From: Escherichia coli
Lineage (GTDB): Bacteria; Pseudomonadota; Gammaproteobacteria; Enterobacterales; Enterobacteriaceae
Length of the DNA stretch: 64,000 nucleotides
Direction: 5' to 3' (one strand)
NCBI RefSeq assembly: GCF_022846255.1
Contig: NZ_AP025682.1
Under the pieces are notes generated by a model, which saw only the letters and a list, made by a program, of their open reading frames with translations, searched no databases and had not been told where the DNA came from. The position numbers and the translations under genes were made by a program. Shown piece after piece: positions 32,506 through 54,300 of this stretch; the stretch's first letter is position 1, and every line of letters starts with the position of its first letter.

Positions 32506-32604
32506 GCCGGATGCGGCACAAACGCCTTATCCGGCCTACAAAAGTTTGCAAATTCAATAGATTACAGAATTCATGTAGGCCTGATAAGCGAAGCGCATCA
32601 GGCC
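32506..32604. repeat. pair of inverted REP elements (BIME) between sbp and pfkA
   Basis: gccggatgcggcacaaacgccttatccggcctac and gtaggcctgataagcgaagcgcatcaggcc. Confidence 0.8.
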
Positions 32605-35503: not shown

Positions 35504-36202
35504 ATGAATAAAATCCTGTTAGTTGATGATGACCGAGAGCTGACTTCCCTATTAAAGGAGCTGCTCGAGATGGAAGGCTTCAACGTGATTGTTGCCCACG
35601 ATGGGGAACAGGCGCTTGATCTTCTGGACGACAGCATTGATTTACTTTTGCTTGATGTAATGATGCCGAAGAAAAATGGTATCGACACATTAAAAGCACT
35701 TCGCCAGACACACCAGACGCCTGTCATTATGTTGACGGCGCGCGGCAGTGAACTTGATCGCGTTCTCGGGCTTGAGCTGGGCGCAGATGACTATCTCCCA
35801 AAACCGTTTAATGATCGTGAGCTGGTGGCACGTATTCGCGCGATCCTGCGCCGTTCGCACTGGAGCGAACAACAGCAAAACAACGACAACGGTTCACCGA
35901 CACTGGAAGTTGATGCCTTAAGTCTCAATCCTGGTCGCCAGGAAGCCAGCTTCGACGGGCAAACACTGGAGTTAACCGGTACTGAGTTTACCCTGCTCTA
36001 TTTGCTGGCACAGCATCTGGGTCAGGTGGTTTCCCGTGAGCATTTAAGCCAGGAAGTGCTGGGCAAGCGCCTGACGCCTTTCGACCGCGCTATCGATATG
36101 CACATTTCCAACCTGCGTCGTAAACTGCCGGATCGTAAAGATGGTCACCCGTGGTTTAAAACCCTGCGTGGTCGCGGCTATCTGATGGTTTCTGCTTCAT
36201 GA
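35504..36202 (+). CDS. cpxR: two-component response regulator CpxR
   Basis: 232 aa, MNKILLVDDDRELTSLLKELLEMEGF. Confidence 0.95.
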   Translation: MNKILLVDDDRELTSLLKELLEMEGFNVIVAHDGEQALDLLDDSIDLLLLDVMMPKKNGIDTLKALRQTHQTPVIMLTARGSELDRVLGLELGADDYLPKPFNDRELVARIRAILRRSHWSEQQQNNDNGSPTLEVDALSLNPGRQEASFDGQTLELTGTEFTLLYLLAQHLGQVVSREHLSQEVLGKRLTPFDRAIDMHISNLRRKLPDRKDGHPWFKTLRGRGYLMVSAS

Positions 36203-37572
36203 TAGGCAGCTTAACCGCGCGCATCTTCGCCATCTTCTGGCTGACGCTGGCGCTGGTGTTGATGTTGGTTTTGATGTTACCCAAGCTCGATTCACGCCAG
36301 ATGACCGAGCTTCTGGATAGCGAACAGCGTCAGGGTCTGATGATTGAGCAGCATGTCGAAGCGGAGCTGGCGAACGATCCGCCCAACGATTTAATGTGGT
36401 GGCGGCGTCTGTTCCGGGCGATTGATAAGTGGGCACCGCCAGGACAACGTTTGTTATTGGTGACCACCGAAGGCCGCGTGATCGGCGCTGAACGCAGCGA
36501 AATGCAGATCATTCGTAACTTTATTGGTCAGGCCGATAACGCCGATCATCCGCAGAAGAAAAAGTATGGTCGCGTGGAACTGGTCGGTCCGTTCTCCGTG
36601 CGTGATGGCGAAGATAATTACCAACTTTATCTGATTCGTCCGGCCAGCAGTTCTCAATCCGATTTCATCAACTTACTGTTTGACCGCCCGCTATTACTGC
36701 TGATTGTCACCATGCTGGTCAGTACGCCGCTGCTGTTGTGGTTGGCCTGGAGTCTGGCAAAACCGGCGCGTAAGCTGAAAAACGCTGCCGATGAAGTTGC
36801 CCAGGGAAACTTACGCCAGCACCCGGAACTGGAAGCGGGGCCACAGGAATTCCTTGCCGCCGGTGCCAGTTTTAACCAGATGGTCACCGCGCTGGAGCGC
36901 ATGATGACCTCTCAGCAGCGTCTACTTTCTGATATCTCTCACGAACTGCGCACCCCGCTGACGCGTCTGCAACTGGGTACGGCGTTACTGCGCCGTCGTA
37001 GCGGTGAAAGCAAGGAACTGGAGCGTATTGAAACCGAAGCGCAACGTCTGGACAGCATGATCAACGATCTGTTGGTGATGTCACGTAATCAGCAGAAAAA
37101 TGCGCTGGTTAGCGAGACCATCAAAGCCAACCAGTTGTGGAGTGAAGTGCTGGATAACGCGGCGTTCGAAGCCGAGCAAATGGGCAAGTCGTTGACGGTT
37201 AACTTCCCACCTGGGCCGTGGCCGCTGTACGGCAACCCGAACGCCCTGGAAAGTGCGCTGGAAAACATTGTTCGTAATGCTCTGCGTTATTCCCATACGA
37301 AGATTGAAGTGGGCTTTGCGGTAGATAAAGACGGTATCACCATTACGGTGGACGACGATGGTCCTGGCGTTAGCCCGGAAGATCGCGAACAGATTTTCCG
37401 TCCATTCTATCGGACCGATGAAGCACGCGATCGTGAATCTGGCGGTACAGGTTTGGGGCTGGCGATTGTAGAAACCGCCATTCAGCAGCATCGTGGCTGG
37501 GTGAAGGCAGAAGACAGCCCGCTGGGCGGTTTACGGCTGGTGATTTGGTTGCCGCTGTATAAGCGGAGTTAA
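36199..37572 (+). CDS. cpxA: two-component sensor histidine kinase CpxA
   Basis: 457 aa, H-box SHELRTPLTRL; overlaps cpxR stop. Confidence 0.95.
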   Translation: MIGSLTARIFAIFWLTLALVLMLVLMLPKLDSRQMTELLDSEQRQGLMIEQHVEAELANDPPNDLMWWRRLFRAIDKWAPPGQRLLLVTTEGRVIGAERSEMQIIRNFIGQADNADHPQKKKYGRVELVGPFSVRDGEDNYQLYLIRPASSSQSDFINLLFDRPLLLLIVTMLVSTPLLLWLAWSLAKPARKLKNAADEVAQGNLRQHPELEAGPQEFLAAGASFNQMVTALERMMTSQQRLLSDISHELRTPLTRLQLGTALLRRRSGESKELERIETEAQRLDSMINDLLVMSRNQQKNALVSETIKANQLWSEVLDNAAFEAEQMGKSLTVNFPPGPWPLYGNPNALESALENIVRNALRYSHTKIEVGFAVDKDGITITVDDDGPGVSPEDREQIFRPFYRTDEARDRESGGTGLGLAIVETAIQQHRGWVKAEDSPLGGLRLVIWLPLYKRS

Positions 37573-37677: not shown

Positions 37678-38352
37678 TTATTTTCCCCACAAACGGCGGG
37701 AAAAATCTTCGATCTTGCCGCTAAGTCGGCGCTTTTGCATCGTTCGCGTCCAGCTTTTCGATAACCCTGCGGCGGAGAGTAAACGGTGATACTGATCGTC
37801 ATCAAACGGCATATGCCATGCGATGGCGGCAGCCTCCTGCACGGTCACATCGCTGACACGGGAAACCAACTCCAGCGGCGCATCAGCAGATACCAACCCT
37901 GGTGCAATTACGCTATACAACCACCCCACTTTACCCGTGTTTTGCATCAACTGCGCTATATCGCTGATATCAAAATGGTAATTGAGTTTATAGCAAGGTG
38001 AGCGTGGCTGGCTGACCTGAATTAATGCCTCTCCCCAGCGGAAAATATCACCAATATAAACATTACTTTCCGTCAGACCGTCGGTTGAGAGATTTTCGCC
38101 AAACGCAGGCGCAACAAACAGCTCCGCCTGTTCCGGAAATTCCCGCGCCCAGTAGAGATAATGCTCACGAGGATAATGACACAGCGCTCTGTCTGGCCCG
38201 CCGTGGATCTTTTTCTCCGCCTGTTCGTCACCTTCCAGCCCCAGGTCCGTCAGCATCAACTCACCATCAACCTGGATTTTGGCAATTGCGCTGGGTTTGC
38301 CTTCGGGATAAGCCTGAATCTTGCCTGTGTATACATCAACCGGATATCGCAT
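37678..38352 (-). CDS. yiiM: MOSC-domain protein YiiM
   Basis: 224 aa from MRYPVDVYTGKIQAYPEGKP. Confidence 0.85.
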   Translation of the reverse strand: MRYPVDVYTGKIQAYPEGKPSAIAKIQVDGELMLTDLGLEGDEQAEKKIHGGPDRALCHYPREHYLYWAREFPEQAELFVAPAFGENLSTDGLTESNVYIGDIFRWGEALIQVSQPRSPCYKLNYHFDISDIAQLMQNTGKVGWLYSVIAPGLVSADAPLELVSRVSDVTVQEAAAIAWHMPFDDDQYHRLLSAAGLSKSWTRTMQKRRLSGKIEDFSRRLWGK

Positions 38353-38500
38353 CTGTTCCCTCTCCACGAGAAATTTCCCCATTAGACCATATTTATTTTA
38401 TGTCAGGCGTGCTGTTTTCGCGGTAAGTATCCAGGCAGAAACGCAATTGAAAACCGGACGAACGTTAGTTCATCCGGCTGTGGGGATTAAGGAAGTTGGT

Positions 38501-43411: not shown

Positions 43412-46170
<2,759 letters not shown>

Positions 46171-46175
46171 ACACT

Positions 46176-46675
46176 GCCGGATGCGGCACAAGTGCCTTAT
46201 CCGGCCTACAGGTCAGCAACAGTTGTAGCCCTGATAAGACGCGACAGCGTCGCATCAGGCATTGATTGCCGGATGCGGCACGAGTGCCTTATCCGGCCTA
46301 CGGGTCGGCAATAGTTGTAGGCCTGATAAGACGCGACAGCGTCGCATCAGGCATTGATTGCCGGATGCGGCACGAGCGCCATATCCGGCCTACGGGTCGG
46401 CAATAGTTGTAGGCCTGATAAGACGCGACAGCGTCGCATCAGGCATTGATTGCCGGATGCGGCACGAGTGCCTTATCCGGCCTACGGGTCAGCAACAGTT
46501 GTAGGCCTGATAAGACGCGACAGCGTCGCATCAGGCATTGATTGCCGGATGCGGCACAAGTGCCTTATCCGGCCTACGGGTCGGCAATAGTTGTAGGCCT
46601 GATAAGACGCGACAGCGTCGCATCAGGCATTGATTGCCGGATGCGGCACGAGTGCCTTATCCGGCCTACGGGTCG
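46176..46675. repeat. tandem array of about 5.4 copies of a 92-bp BIME unit (two inverted REP elements per unit) between rhaA and rhaD
   Basis: unit starts at 46176, 46268, 46360, 46452, 46544 and 46636 with exact 92-bp period and a few point differences. Confidence 0.9.
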
Positions 46676-46712
46676 TGCATCCGACAACACCGAATTAACA
46701 GGAACACAGAAC

Positions 46713-47537
46713 ATGCAAAACATAACCCAGTCCTGGTTTGTCCAGGGAATGATCAAAGCCACCACCGATGCCTGGCTGAAAGGCTGGGACGAGCGCAACG
46801 GCGGCAACCTGACGCTGCGCCTGGATGACGCCGATATCGCACCATATCACGACATTTTTCACCAACAACCGCGCTATATCCCGCTCAGCCAGCCCATGCC
46901 TTTACTGGCAAATACACCGTTTATTGTCACCGGCTCGGGCAAATTCTTCCGTAACGTCCAGCTTGATCCTGCGGCTAACTTAGGCATCGTAAAAGTCGAC
47001 AGCGACGGCGCGGGCTACCACATTCTTTGGGGGTTAACCAACGAAGCCGTCCCCACTTCCGAACTTCCGGCTCACTTTCTCTCCCACTGCGAGCGCATTA
47101 AAGCCACCAACGGTAAAGATCGGGTGATCATGCACTGCCATGCCACCAACCTGATCGCCCTTACCTACGTACTGGAAAACGACACCGCGGTCTTCACTCG
47201 CCAGCTTTGGGAAGGCAGCACCGAGTGTCTGGTAGTGTTCCCGGATGGCGTTGGAATTCTGCCGTGGATGGTGCCCGGCACGGACGAAATCGGCCAGGCG
47301 ACCGCACAGGAAATGCAAAAACATTCGCTGGTGTTGTGGCCCTTCCACGGCGTCTTCGGCAGCGGTCCGACACTGGATGAAACATTCGGTTTAATCGACA
47401 CCGCAGAAAAATCAGCACAAATATTAGTGAAGGTTTATTCGATGGGCGGCATGAAACAGACCATCAGCCGTGAAGAGTTGATAGCACTCGGCCAGCGTTT
47501 CGGCGTTACACCACTCGCCAGTGCGCTGGCGCTGTAA
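46713..47537 (+). CDS. rhaD: rhamnulose-1-phosphate aldolase
   Basis: 274 aa from [25 protein letters not shown]; ORF track upstream extension lies in the REP array. Confidence 0.95.
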
Positions 47538-47546
47538 GGAGCAAAC

Positions 47547-47861
47547 ATGATCCGCAAAGCCTTTGTCATGCAGGTAAACCCCGACGCCCACGAAGAGTAT
47601 CAGCGTCGGCATAATCCCATCTGGCCGGAACTGGAAGCCGTGCTGAAATCTCACGGTGCGCATAACTACGCCATCTATCTCGACAAAGCGCGTAATCTGC
47701 TATTTGCCACGATAGAGATTGAATCTGAAGAGCGGTGGAATGCGGTTGCCAGTACAGATGTTTGCCAACGTTGGTGGAAGTATATGACCGACGTTATGCC
47801 AGCTAACCCGGATAACAGCCCAGTCAGTAGCGAGCTGCAAGAAGTGTTTTACCTACCTTAA
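47547..47861 (+). CDS. rhaM: L-rhamnose mutarotase
   Basis: 104 aa, [30 protein letters not shown]. Confidence 0.9.
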
Positions 47862-47901: not shown

Positions 47902-49296
47902 TCAGAAGAAGTATTTAAAGCGAACGCGTGCGCCGTAACGGTCATCAGTATCATCACCGTGTTTTTTATCACCGTCGCTATCCAGAATGGAGTAATAAGT
48001 ACCAAGGTAAATATTAAAGTTCTCCATATCCATCACATTAGCGAACTGGTAAGACGCATGAATGGTGTGAATGGTGTACGTCCCTTCATCATCAATCCAG
48101 CAGTCGTTATCACAAACTACACCGCTGAATTCATCAATCTTATTGTGCGCGTAGATATAACCCAGCTCGAAACGTTTCCACAGCGCGTTAATCCCGGCAG
48201 TGAAATCTTTCTCATTATTAGCATCTAAATAGGCGGTATTAAGATTAACCACGACGCCATTTTCCGGATCCGTTTTCAGGCCATTCCAGGTCATGCTCAT
48301 ACCATAGCCGGTACGATCGGACTGATCGACAAAATTACCCTTGCTATCGGTATAACCATAAGCATTATTTACCATATTCGCTTCCATCGCTGCGGAAACG
48401 GTGAATTCTTCCGTCGGCGACCAGGCAATTACCGGACGCAGATAAGCAACATTTTTCTGCTGTTCCATATCGCGTCCATGATAATTACCGTCGTTATATA
48501 AAGATGTTCCATCTTCCAGTAACGTGTTTAATTCAAAATACCAGTTATCGAGTTGTTTGCTGACGAGGAAATTACCGCCAGCGTTAGAACGTCCGCGGCC
48601 CTCTTTCATCATATAGATATAACCGCTGCCATCGTCATAAAGATCGTTCGCAGTATTACCGGAATGTTCAACAAAGGTATCCTGACTCAGCGGGAACATA
48701 TCGTAGGCTTCAAAACGGCCTACTTTGACCTTCCAGTCGTTTTCTTTGCCAAAGAAGAAAACCGCATCATCGATATTTACTGAACCGTGCATATCCCCCA
48801 GCGGTTGTACGGAGAACCCAGCGAAATAGCCATTATCCAGTTTTCGCATACCATCAAAACCTAACAGAATACGACCATTGAGATTCCACTGTTCATTAGT
48901 GGGATCGCTATTCACATCAGCGTTGGTCATTGCCAGCAGGCCATGATTACTTTCCGCATCCATATTAAATTCTACGTCACCGTAGATTTTTAAATCGCCA
49001 TACCCTGAAAGCAGGAGATTAGGCGGGGTGGCGTTTTTCTTCTCTGACTCCGTCGTTGATTGACCGTTTACCGGCGTGTTGCCCTGTGCGATCTTAATTT
49101 CGCGGATCTCGGCGGCTTGTTGTGTCTGAAGCTGTTTAACCTGCCCCTCTGCTTTTGCTGCCCGCATTTCTGCCGCTTCCAGGCGTTCTTCCAGCAATGC
49201 CATGCGTTGTTCCAGCGTTAAATGCTGTGTTTTTGCCATACCGGTACTACATGCCAATAATAAACCGATGGCTAAAGATAATGTCGATTTTTTCAT
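47902..49296 (-). CDS. outer-membrane porin, probably substrate-specific (carbohydrate-porin-like), with N-terminal coiled-coil extension
   Basis: 464 aa; signal peptide; coiled-coil LEQRMALLEERLEAAEMRAAKAEGQVKQLQ; C-terminal FKYFF; 353-bp AT-rich upstream region. Confidence 0.5.
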   Translation of the reverse strand: MKKSTLSLAIGLLLACSTGMAKTQHLTLEQRMALLEERLEAAEMRAAKAEGQVKQLQTQQAAEIREIKIAQGNTPVNGQSTTESEKKNATPPNLLLSGYGDLKIYGDVEFNMDAESNHGLLAMTNADVNSDPTNEQWNLNGRILLGFDGMRKLDNGYFAGFSVQPLGDMHGSVNIDDAVFFFGKENDWKVKVGRFEAYDMFPLSQDTFVEHSGNTANDLYDDGSGYIYMMKEGRGRSNAGGNFLVSKQLDNWYFELNTLLEDGTSLYNDGNYHGRDMEQQKNVAYLRPVIAWSPTEEFTVSAAMEANMVNNAYGYTDSKGNFVDQSDRTGYGMSMTWNGLKTDPENGVVVNLNTAYLDANNEKDFTAGINALWKRFELGYIYAHNKIDEFSGVVCDNDCWIDDEGTYTIHTIHASYQFANVMDMENFNIYLGTYYSILDSDGDKKHGDDTDDRYGARVRFKYFF

Positions 49297-51318: not shown

Positions 51319-54300
51319 ATGCAGGTCAGCAGAAGGCAGTTCTTTAAGATCTGCGCTGGCGGTATGGCAGGCACCACGGCGGCGGCACTGGGTTTTGCAC
51401 CCAGCGTAGCACTCGCGGAAACCCGGCAGTATAAACTGCTGCGCACCCGCGAAACCCGTAATACCTGCACCTATTGTTCCGTAGGCTGTGGGCTGTTGAT
51501 GTACAGCCTCGGTGACGGAGCAAAAAACGCCAAAGCATCTATCTTCCATATCGAAGGTGACCCGGATCACCCGGTCAACCGCGGAGCACTTTGTCCGAAA
51601 GGCGCTGGCCTGGTGGATTTCATCCACTCCGAAAGCCGTCTGAAGTTTCCGGAATACCGTGCGCCAGGTTCTGATAAATGGCAGCAAATCAGTTGGGAAG
51701 AGGCGTTTGATCGCATCGCCAAACTGATGAAAGAAGACCGCGATGCAAACTACATTGCGCAAAACGCCGAAGGCGTGACTGTTAACCGCTGGCTCTCCAC
51801 CGGGATGCTGTGTGCTTCCGCGTCGAGTAACGAAACCGGCTATTTAACGCAAAAATTCTCCCGCGCGCTGGGTATGCTCGCGGTCGACAACCAGGCGCGT
51901 GTCTGACACGGACCAACGGTAGCAAGTCTTGCTCCAACATTTGGTCGCGGTGCGATGACCAACCACTGGGTCGACATCAAGAATGCCAACCTCGTCGTGG
52001 TGATGGGCGGTAACGCCGCTGAAGCTCACCCGGTCGGGTTCCGCTGGGCGATGGAAGCCAAAATTCACAACGGCGCGAAGCTGATTGTGATCGATCCTCG
52101 CTTTACGCGTACGGCGGCGGTGGCTGACTACTATGCCCCTATCCGTTCCGGTACTGACATTGCTTTCCTGTCAGGCGTATTGCTGTACCTGCTGAACAAT
52201 GAAAAATTCAACCGCGAATACACCGAAGCCTATACCAACGCCAGCCTGATCGTGCGTGAGGATTACGGCTTTGAAGATGGCCTGTTCACCGGCTACGACG
52301 CGGAAAAACGCAAGTACGATAAGTCCACCTGGACTTACGAACTGGACGAAAACGGCTTCGCCAAACGCGATACTACCCTGCAACATCCACGTTGCGTGTG
52401 GAACTTGCTGAAACAGCACGTTTCCCGCTACACGCCAGATGTGGTTGAAAACATCTGTGGTACGCCAAAAGACGCATTCCTGAAAGTCTGCGAATACATC
52501 GCCGAAACCAGTGCTCACGATAAAACAGCGTCGTTCCTCTACGCCCTCGGCTGGACGCAACACTCCATCGGTGCGCAGAACATCCGTACGATGGCGATGA
52601 TCCAGTTGCTGCTCGGCAATATGGGGATGGCTGGCGGCGGCGTTAACGCCCTGCGCGGTCACTCCAATATTCAGGGGCTGACCGACCTGGGGCTGCTGTC
52701 GCAGAGTCTGCCAGGTTACATGACGTTGCCAAGCGAGAAGCAGACCGATCTGCAAACTTACCTCGCTGCCAACACGCCAAAACCACTGCTGGAAGGCCAG
52801 GTCAACTACTGGGGCAACTACCCGAAATTCTTCGTCTCAATGATGAAGGCATTCTTTGGTGATAAAGCGACGGCGGAAAATAGCTGGGGCTTTGACTGGT
52901 TGCCGAAGTGGGATAAAGGCTACGACGTCCTGCAATACTTCGAGATGATGAAAGAGGGCAAGGTCAATGGCTATATCTGCCAGGGCTTTAACCCTGTTGC
53001 CTCATTCCCGAACAAAAACAAAGTGATCGGCTGTCTGTCGAAGCTGAAATTCCTCGTAACTATCGACCCGCTGAACACTGAAACCTCTAACTTCTGGCAG
53101 AACCACGGTGAGCTGAACGAAGTTGACTCGTCGAAGATCCAGACCGAAGTGTTCCGTCTGCCATCGACCTGCTTCGCGGAAGAGAACGGTTCAATCGTTA
53201 ACTCTGGTCGCTGGTTGCAATGGCACTGGAAAGGTGCGGACGCCCCGGGGATTGCGCTGACTGATGGCGAGATCCTCTCCGGTATCTTCCTGCGCTTGCG
53301 CAAGATGTATGCCGAACAGGGTGGTGCGAACCCGGACCAGGTGCTGAACATGACCTGGAACTACGCCATTCCGCATGAGCCATCTTCAGAAGAAGTGGCA
53401 ATGGAGAGCAACGGCAAAGCGCTGGCCGATATTACCGACCCGGCAACCGGTGCGGTTATCGTCAAGAAAGGCCAACAACTTAGCTCGTTCGCCCAACTGC
53501 GCGATGACGGTACAACCTCCTGTGGCTGCTGGATTTTCGCCGGTAGCTGGACGCCGGAAGGCAACCAGATGGCGCGTCGTGATAACGCCGATCCGTCTGG
53601 CCTCGGTAACACGCTGGGCTGGGCATGGGCATGGCCGCTTAACCGCCGCATTCTGTATAACCGCGCCTCCGCAGATCCGCAGGGTAACCCATGGGATCCG
53701 AAGCGTCAGTTGCTGAAATGGGACGGCACTAAGTGGACCGGCTGGGATATTCCGGATTACAGCGCAGCGCCTCCGGGCAGCGGCGTAGGGCCGTTTATCA
53801 TGCAGCAGGAAGGCATGGGACGTCTGTTTGCCCTCGATAAGATGGCGGAAGGTCCGTTCCCGGAACACTACGAGCCGTTTGAAACGCCGCTGGGAACTAA
53901 CCCGCTGCATCCAAACGTTATCTCGAACCCGGCGGCGCGTATCTTTAAAGACGACGCCGAAGCATTGGGTAAAGCCGATAAGTTCCCGTATGTCGGAACC
54001 ACCTATCGTCTGACCGAGCACTTCCACTACTGGACCAAACACGCGCTGTTGAATGCGATTTTGCAACCAGAGCAGTTTGTGGAAATCGGGGAGTCGCTGG
54101 CGAATAAACTTGGCATTGCCCAGGGCGATACTGTGAAAGTCTCCTCCAACCGTGGCTATATCAAAGCCAAAGCGGTAGTGACCAAACGTATTCGCACGCT
54201 GAAAGCAAACGGCAAAGATATCGATACCATCGGTATTCCGATTCACTGGGGCTATGAAGGTGTTGCGAAAAAAGGCTTTATTGCCAATACGTTGACGCCA

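Follow-up and report, generated by a model that had tools for sequence, protein, structure and literature searches.

BIME-2 elements, as set out by Ton-Hoang 2012 after the Gilson/Bachellier classification, are composed of Y and Z2 REPs that alternate in orientation, are separated by short linkers, and are repeated in tandem at extragenic sites, where DNA gyrase binds and cleaves them in vivo (PMC3333891). Tandem BIME copies are well conserved within a locus, and strains differ in how many they carry (Ton-Hoang 2012, PMC3333891). REP clusters of Escherichia coli K-12 are said to hold 1-12 palindromic units. BIME-1 elements (RIP) share with BIME-2 a Y REP placed in an inverted pair, but the partner is a Z1 REP, an IHF-binding L linker is present, and the element is single (Ton-Hoang 2012, PMC3333891).

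The closest described system is the array that occupies the rhaA-rhaD spacer of K-12, which has 4.4 units and 9 REPs in a 450-bp spacer. Its EcoCyc name, REP299a-i, is used here as quoted in a mobilome preprint (10.1101/2024.07.17.603846), because the K-12 RefSeq annotation lists no repeat feature between rhaA and rhaD. REP299a-i is the sole one of eight long REP regions to lie inside an operon (rhaBAD), and it sits within 15 nt of the upstream gene, a distance for which a link to translational regulation has been made (10.1101/2024.07.17.603846). The same locus is listed by Sutormin 2019 in sheet DS3 as 'BIMEs2', 401 bp, 'rhaA>-rhaD>', with four gyrase cleavage sites trapped by Cfx (ciprofloxacin), two by Rif+Cfx, one by microcin B17, and none by oxolinic acid (PMC6379681). 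In that study BIME-2 elements were transcription-independent gyrase sites that are cut mainly in their Y units (PMC6379681). Cleavage of the rhaA-rhaD BIME-2 by DNA gyrase in vivo has been shown, in published work on the K-12 homologue only.

A second relevant system is REP325, the model BIME-2, in the yjdM-yjdN spacer of K-12, which has been tested experimentally. The upstream yjdM mRNA is stabilised by REP325, and there is partial, partly Rho-dependent termination before yjdN (10.64898/2026.03.23.713779). Genome-wide, tandem gene pairs split by REPs have higher upstream/downstream expression ratios, and REPs do not uniformly lengthen mRNA half-lives, their effects being dependent on context (10.64898/2026.03.23.713779). 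We describe here a long allele of the rhaA-rhaD array and compare it with both of these systems.

The rhaA-rhaD array and its 92-bp unit

The window, by which we mean the whole 64-kb stretch of DNA that was analysed, contains a single tandem array detectable by Tandem Repeats Finder. It lies in the 542-bp rhaA-rhaD spacer (46175..46675), with a period of 92, 5.4 copies, 96% matches, 0% indels, and a score of 932. A repeat search returned start-to-start spacings of exactly 92, 92, and 92, and in a register print of the array, five full units followed by a partial sixth of 41 nt, only 10 positions in all depart from the consensus. Searching for REP heads gave six GCCGGATGCGGC on the + strand and five GCCTGATGCGAC on the - strand, again at exact 92-bp spacing, for a total of 11 palindromic units (six Y and five Z2); over the whole window the REP-head pattern has 18 matches where 1.7 are expected by chance. 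The array and its parts are as follows.

46175..46675, + strand: whole BIME-2 array, 5.4 x 92-bp unit, 11 palindromic units, within the rhaBAD transcription unit (Tandem Repeats Finder, register print, RNA fold)
46176..46209, + strand: Y-type REP no. 1, GCCGGATGCGGCACAAGTGCCTTATCCGGCCTAC (head pattern search; hairpin of -20.0 kcal/mol, z about -5)
46268-46301, 46360-46393, 46452-46485, 46544-46577, and 46636-46669, + strand: other Y units (head pattern search)
46210..46224, + strand: tail-to-tail linker, 15 nt, GGGTCGGCAATAGTT, allele GGGTCAGCAACAGTT, recurring every 92 bp
46225..46261, - strand: Z2-type REP no. 1, inverted, minus strand TGCCTGATGCGACGCTGTCGCGTCTTATCAGGGCTAC (head pattern search; hairpin of -18 to -22 kcal/mol)
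46317-46353, 46409-46445, 46501-46537, and 46593-46629, - strand: other Z2 units (head pattern search)
46262..46267, + strand: head-to-head linker, 6 nt, TTGATT, recurring every 92 bp, without an IHF consensus

The 92-bp unit therefore reads as a 34-nt palindrome GCCGGATGCGGCACGAGTGCCTTATCCGGCCTAC, the 15-nt linker, an inverted 37-nt palindrome whose minus strand is TGCCTGATGCGACGCTGTCGCGTCTTATCAGGCCTAC, and the 6-nt linker. The Y-type REP carries its CTAC tail at the 3′-end on the mRNA strand, strand alternates at every REP so that the junctions are in turn tail-to-tail (15 nt) and head-to-head (6 nt), and variation within the unit is greatest in the tail-to-tail linker. The two REPs of the unit can be aligned with the Y and Z2 REPs of REP325.

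A preliminary description of this locus, made from the sequence, had recognised a 92-bp tandem array of 5.4 copies built of two inverted REP palindromes, and the Tandem Repeats Finder result, the register print, and the pattern search bear this out, with one palindrome of Y type and one of Z2 type. The edges given there need adjustment. On the rhaA side the array begins 4 nt past the stop codon, after the spacer ACAC, and the first hairpin base is 5 nt past the stop, rather than the 6 bp proposed; the right edge, placed about 40 bp before rhaD, is 37 nt short of the ATG. The further claim that the array is unusually regular does not survive comparison, as the same program finds REP325 to be equally regular (period 100, 5.8 copies, 96% matches, 0 indels) and good conservation among tandem copies at one locus is what Ton-Hoang 2012 describes. 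The 11 palindromic units also fall within the range of 1-12 described for K-12 REP clusters.

The Y/Z2 composition, the alternating orientation, the conserved tandem copies that vary in number between strains, and the confinement of the array to the interval from the rhaA stop (46170) to the rhaD start (46713) show it to be a BIME-2. It shares with REP299a-i of K-12 the locus, the ACAC that follows the rhaA stop, the 37-nt rhaD leader, and the 92-bp Y-linker-Z2-linker unit, and differs from it in length (5.4 units, 11 REPs, and a 542-bp spacer versus 4.4 units, 9 REPs, and 450 bp) and in its mosaic of unit variants. The preliminary description had missed that the element is a catalogued one (EcoCyc REP299a-i) and that gyrase cleavage has been mapped experimentally in its K-12 counterpart. 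The literature already describes the element and the class to which it belongs, together with its regularity and copy-number polymorphism, and what the window adds is a rare long allele. We hold it to be very probable that the array is the REP299a-i BIME-2 extended by one 92-bp unit, with the origin and the RNA, translation, and gyrase roles proposed below.

Two other classes of element were considered and rejected. A BIME-1 with an IHF site is inconsistent with a partner that is Z2 and not Z1, with short linkers, and with tandem rather than single occurrence, and the IHF consensus WATCAANNNNTTR, a hallmark of BIME-1, has no match in the array. A CRISPR array is inconsistent with the linkers themselves being repeated, such that the full 92 bp recurs and there are no unique spacers.

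Flanking genes and the start of rhaD

NCBIfam equivalog models identify rhaR and rhaS on the minus strand, followed by rhaB, rhaA, rhaD, and rhaM. The genes and the open reading frame that touch on the array are listed here.

43445-44914, + strand: rhaB (NCBIfam equivalog model)
44911..46170, + strand: rhaA, L-rhamnose isomerase, stop codon TAA at 46168-46170 (NCBIfam TIGR01748, 824 bits)
46542..46712, + strand: spurious 5′ extension of the rhaD open reading frame into array units 5-6, non-coding, with a TTG start; alleles with fewer copies lack this frame or have it shifted
46713..47537, + strand: rhaD, rhamnulose-1-phosphate aldolase, ATG at 46713 (NCBIfam NF002963, 476 bits, residues 1-273)
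47547-47861, + strand: rhaM (NCBIfam equivalog model)

A mechanically called open reading frame (46542..47537, TTG start, 331 aa) runs from the interior of the array into rhaD, and read literally it would give RhaD an N-terminal extension or place a small protein within the repeat. One RefSeq genome does annotate a pseudo 'hypothetical protein' within its array, and translation signals have been reported by PIRT-Seq for a small number of REP elements. That RefSeq feature is flagged as frameshifted and incomplete, the extension is altered or lost with each copy-number allele, alignment to the RhaD family model begins with residue 1, at the ATG at 46713, and RefSeq likewise has rhaD begin at the ATG in homologous loci. 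A coding sequence within the array is effectively refuted by these observations, and we regard its probability as vanishingly small; the preliminary description was right to call the extension of rhaD spurious. The feature in question (NZ_CP171883.1, locus L006, 774-907) is a frameshifted, incomplete pseudogene in a 1.4-unit array and is an annotation artefact caused by the repeat.

The 37-nt rhaD leader differs at few points over six verified alleles of 0.4 to 6.4 copies, a comparison in which the variant with 10 additional bp at the right end (L009 and L011) was left out. Ahead of the rhaD ATG an AGGA is found at 46700-46703. The suggestion that the array affects rhaD translation has no basis in the sequence, since this leader and its AGGA are outside the array and nearly constant over alleles.

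Downstream of rhaM, on the minus strand, is a 464-aa open reading frame (47902-49296) that is annotated as a 'carbohydrate porin' in matching genomes (L002 and L011). K-12 has frvA-frvB after its rha operon at this position, and the junction is therefore variable between strains.

Copy number among E. coli strains

The sequence of the window is E. coli-like, with at most 98-99.3% identity to any complete genome in the collection. To read alleles of the array, the two flanks were joined without the array and used as a query, the span between them was read for each record, and 60 genomes were taken evenly from the ranking of 5402 matching genomes. The alleles found are listed here, and two earlier samples agree with them in outline.

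0.4 units: 15/60 sampled genomes
1.4 units: 11/60 sampled genomes
2.4 units: 8/60 sampled genomes
3.4 units: 1/60 sampled genomes
4.4 units: 15/60 sampled genomes
5.4 units: 0/60 sampled genomes
6.4 units: 1/60 sampled genomes (strain TB06052, verified)
Single Y REP followed by an unrelated inverted-repeat element of about 159 bp: 8/60 sampled genomes
BW25113 with its known rhaBAD deletion: 1/60 sampled genomes

Loci printed in register show that alleles of 0.4, 1.4, 2.4, 3.4, 4.4, 5.4, and 6.4 units have common left and right boundaries. The expectation that copy number differs between strains is borne out by this comparison, from 0.4 to 6.4 in exact 92-bp steps, and variation of this kind was already documented for the BIME class. 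Genomes with 5.4 units (H45-48 and H101) do exist, though rarely, and differ from the window in unit variants and flanks, which indicates that the 5.4-unit length arose more than once. Loci that encode identical RhaA and RhaD protein accessions nevertheless carry 4.4, 3.4, or 1.4 units, or 4.4 units with an 18-bp deletion, and unit number must therefore change faster than the flanking genes. Copy number is associated with lineage and is still changing within identical flanking haplotypes, and it ranges from 0.4 to at least 6.4 among strains that all keep rhaA and rhaD intact. Changes other than by whole units do occur and are rare. The K-12-like 4.4-unit array of NZ_CP047469.1 (L010) has lost 18 bp from its first Y REP, with a spacer of 432 versus 450 bp.

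In about 12-15% of the sampled complete E. coli genomes the array is replaced by one Y REP and an inverted-repeat element of about 159 bp (CCCTCACCCC...CCCTCTCCC / GGGAGAGGGTTAGGGTGAGGGG). Examples of the element in the rhaA-rhaD spacer are found in NZ_LR536431.1 (L008, 772-1012) and in L094 (897-1224), where it is partly duplicated.

The same spacer in other Enterobacteriaceae

Beyond E. coli, the contig of Escherichia sp. MOD1-EC7003 (L013, 1-1041) carries at least 10.5 units of the 92-bp repeat upstream of rhaD, a count that is uncertain because the assembly is a short-read draft. All of its units carry lineage-specific substitutions, which indicates concerted evolution of the array. The first 59 nt of the contig correspond to the end of a multi-copy IS3-family element, which sits in the loop of a Z2 unit and breaks the array; REPs are known targets of IS3-family elements, IS1397 among them (PMC1525189). 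Among species-representative genomes, the scan yielded this one Escherichia locus, and the history of the array at the level of the genus is accordingly read from a single draft contig.

Both rhaA and rhaD could be placed in 75 other species of Enterobacteriaceae, in which the spacer between them ranges over 24-466 bp and is commonly about 100-140 bp. Its content is varied. Unrelated REP pairs are present in Citrobacter, Salmonella arizonae, and Kluyvera, and CCCTCTCCC/GGGAGAGGG inverted-repeat elements in Pseudocitrobacter and Enterobacter (L014, L015, L028, and L061). In Superficieibacter electus (L043, 2035-2500) the 466-bp spacer is filled by an independent array, in which species-specific REPs recur about every 56 bp, all of them in direct orientation, and some species have a bare 24-35 bp between rhaA and rhaD. 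The variety of elements found at the same position across genera points to the rhaA-rhaD site as a recurrent landing place, and the bare or unrelated spacers of other species show that the array is not required for rhaD expression. The elements of Pseudocitrobacter and Enterobacter are similar to the E. coli inverted-repeat element of about 159 bp.

Folding of the array, conservation of its stems, and probable origin

The RNA of the array is predicted to fold at -289 kcal/mol compared with -209 +/- 7 for shuffled sequences (z = -10.8), and single REPs form hairpins of -18 to -22 kcal/mol. The series of hairpins envisaged in the preliminary description is thus far better supported by the fold of the real sequence than by that of its shuffles. 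Alternatively, the 92-nt unit folds as one long Y:Z2 hairpin (-45.9 kcal/mol, z = -5.6), which is the geometry of a REPIN. An inverted REP doublet that can form one long hairpin is common to the unit of the window and to the REPIN-RAYT systems, whose REP doublets are mobilised by the Y1 transposase TnpA-REP, and GTAG/CTAC tetranucleotides and stem mismatches are also present; the role of RAYT in changing copy number is a model drawn from in vitro data.

Conservation of the stems was gauged from 24 distinct full units, those of the window together with 11 Escherichia loci. At paired positions 19 of 1152 depart from the unit consensus, compared with 90 of 1056 at loop and linker positions, so that stems are about 5x less variable than loops and linkers together, and in two unit types a single A-U stem pair is replaced by G-C. 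This pattern fits preservation of the hairpins and could equally reflect copying from intact REP templates.

The array probably originated by local amplification of a REP doublet, either through unequal recombination or slippage between the 92-bp direct repeats or through the action of the REP-associated tyrosine transposase TnpA-REP (RAYT), and the copies would then have been homogenised within each lineage. Cleavage and recombination of BIMEs by TnpA-REP are seen in vitro, where the enzyme can also build up tandem copies.

An amplification of this kind might be all that there is to explain, the array being a neutral genomic parasite, an amplification of REPs, selfish or domesticated, whose effect on rhamnose metabolism, if any, is not under selection, and whose copy number drifts by slippage, unequal crossing-over, or RAYT activity. 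Copy number is unconstrained (15, 11, 8, 1, 15, 0, and 1 genomes for 0.4 to 6.4 copies in the 60-genome sample), about 12-15% of that sample carries the other inverted-repeat element beside a single Y REP, and other genera hold unrelated REP pairs, small repeats, arrays of their own, or the bare 24-35-bp spacer. Spacers of 24-35 bp, together with copy numbers from 0.4 to at least 6.4, imply that any regulatory contribution of the array is dispensable and perhaps unselected. The roughly fivefold better conservation of the stems speaks against neutrality, yet it may stem from copying of functional REP templates. Also weighing against it are the measurable effects of REP325 on its operon and on growth (10.64898/2026.03.23.713779) and the cleavage of the K-12 array by gyrase (PMC6379681). 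We consider neutrality a serious possibility, and one that we nonetheless lean against; the reading of the array as a BIME-2 with effects on its operon is the one followed below.

Proposed effects on the rhaBAD operon

All effects of the array on the rhaBAD operon are proposed by analogy. At the RNA level, hairpins in the rhamnose-induced mRNA would block 3′-to-5′ exonucleases, and the rhaB-rhaA segment would outlive rhaD-rhaM. The segmental stability raised in the preliminary description agrees, by analogy, with the experiments on the sister array REP325. Among papers found to mention both rhaA/rhaD and REP, none dealt with processing of the rhaBAD mRNA. At the level of translation, a ribosome terminating on rhaA would have to melt the first hairpin, 5 nt past the stop codon, which may lower RhaA output. 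A REP near a stop codon reportedly lowers translation of the upstream gene, the '15-nt rule' attributed to Liang and Deutscher in 2015. At the DNA level, the array may serve as a transcription-independent gyrase site that absorbs positive supercoils from the strongly induced operon.

REP325 is the natural comparison for these effects, as it resembles the array of the window in its alternating Y and Z2 REPs, its near-perfect tandem repetition, its location in an operon, and its distance of ≤15 nt from the upstream stop codon. The two differ in their linkers (12 and 17 nt in REP325 versus 6 and 15 nt in the rha array), in that REP325 has been tested experimentally whereas the effects of the rha array are proposed by analogy, and in their orientation to transcription. 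The rha array is inverted with respect to REP325, the antisense rha unit aligning to the REP325 unit with a score of 129 versus 80 for the sense unit, and the mRNA is G-rich in the rha array and C-rich in REP325 (C/G of 0.80 versus 1.30 for the mRNA-sense unit). This caveat on orientation is new in the present analysis.

Orientation matters most for the proposal that the array is mainly a partial Rho-dependent attenuator, which lowers transcription of rhaD-rhaM relative to rhaBA in proportion to copy number. REP325 attenuates before yjdN with partial sensitivity to bicyclomycin and a ladder of hairpin-ended transcripts (10.64898/2026.03.23.713779), and the introduction of the same preprint refers to REPs as partial Rho-dependent terminators. 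Any termination within the rha array would not be intrinsic, since the array has no U tract; a search of 45900-47000 on either strand found no terminator-like site (GC-rich stem-loop followed by a U tract), and an intrinsic (Rho-independent) terminator was rejected on this basis. Set against attenuation, the G-rich and almost fully paired mRNA strand would be a poor rut site and a poor Rho substrate, and the terminator half of the REP325 result may for this reason not apply here. Moreover, rhaD has no predicted promoter of its own, no sigma-70-like site being predicted on either strand around the array, and an internal rhaD promoter was rejected accordingly. A shortfall of aldolase relative to kinase should, from the pathway, lead to a build-up of rhamnulose-1-phosphate, and strong attenuation should be counter-selected; 4.4-copy alleles are nonetheless among the commonest. 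K-12, with its 4.4 copies, grows on rhamnose, and readthrough of the array must therefore be substantial. Strong Rho-dependent attenuation by the rha array is doubtful, attenuation ahead of rhaD would be at most partial, and we think it rather unlikely that attenuation is the main role.

A more speculative extension is that the number of 92-bp units is a heritable, fast-mutable dial that would set the rhaBA : rhaDM expression ratio, and perhaps local supercoiling, lineage by lineage, with long arrays also forming the stress-responsive, exonuclease-protected DNA state reported for REP299 in the mobilome study. We rate this extension as a long shot.

The alleles of 0.4 to 6.4 units, with at least 10.5 in another Escherichia, form a natural series in a tightly inducible and widely used operon, with which the number and orientation of REPs could be tested for their effects on mRNA decay, attenuation, and gyrase recruitment. 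The rha array complements REP325 as a test case because it is oriented the opposite way. Its practical value is modest: arrays of this kind lead gene callers to extend rhaD or to place pseudo-ORFs within the repeat, and short-read assemblies may misreport copy number at rhaA-rhaD.

Matches to the naRNA4 family and other REPs of the window

The Rfam family RF02564 (naRNA4) was built on REP325 units, and it has five matches in the array.

46228..46666, - strand: five RF02564 naRNA4 matches, each a Z2-Y head-to-head pair (67-77 bits, gathering score 59.5)

These matches above the gathering threshold are one reason to ask whether the array is a source of naRNA4-like ncRNAs that bind HU, bridge cruciform DNA, and condense the chromosome, a role that Qian 2015 proposed for REP325 units (PMC4550694). 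On the + (mRNA-sense) strand RF02564 scores 46-54 bits, below gathering, so that the matches above threshold are solely antisense to rhaBAD and to its promoter, the only one known; neither strand has a predicted promoter-like site. The Rfam model is in effect a Y-Z2 REP pair, and a match implies REP identity, not sRNA function. Deletion or overexpression of REP325 was without effect on nucleoid size and no REP-REP contacts were observed (10.64898/2026.03.23.713779), in a preprint from a group to which one author of the original naRNA4 work belongs. The naRNA4/HU model of condensation is weakened by this 2026 preprint and by the strand of the matches, and a nucleoid RNA role for the array is, in our estimate, highly improbable.

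Other REPs occur elsewhere in the window. A single pair of Y and Z2 REPs at 37587-37664 matches naRNA4 at 78.6 bits on the + strand and sits between the convergent open reading frames 36199-37572 (+, 457 aa) and 37678-38382 (-); the former ends in LPLYKRS and is, by look, a putative CpxA. At 32506 a solitary Y-type REP head lies beside a borderline match to Rfam ES036 (CssrF) at 32541-32582 (37.9 versus a threshold of 37.6 bits), and this 'sRNA' match may simply be REP. A strong SECIS_3 match (84 bits) at 51901-51959 (+) indicates a selenocysteine insertion element, which presumably belongs to a formate dehydrogenase gene.
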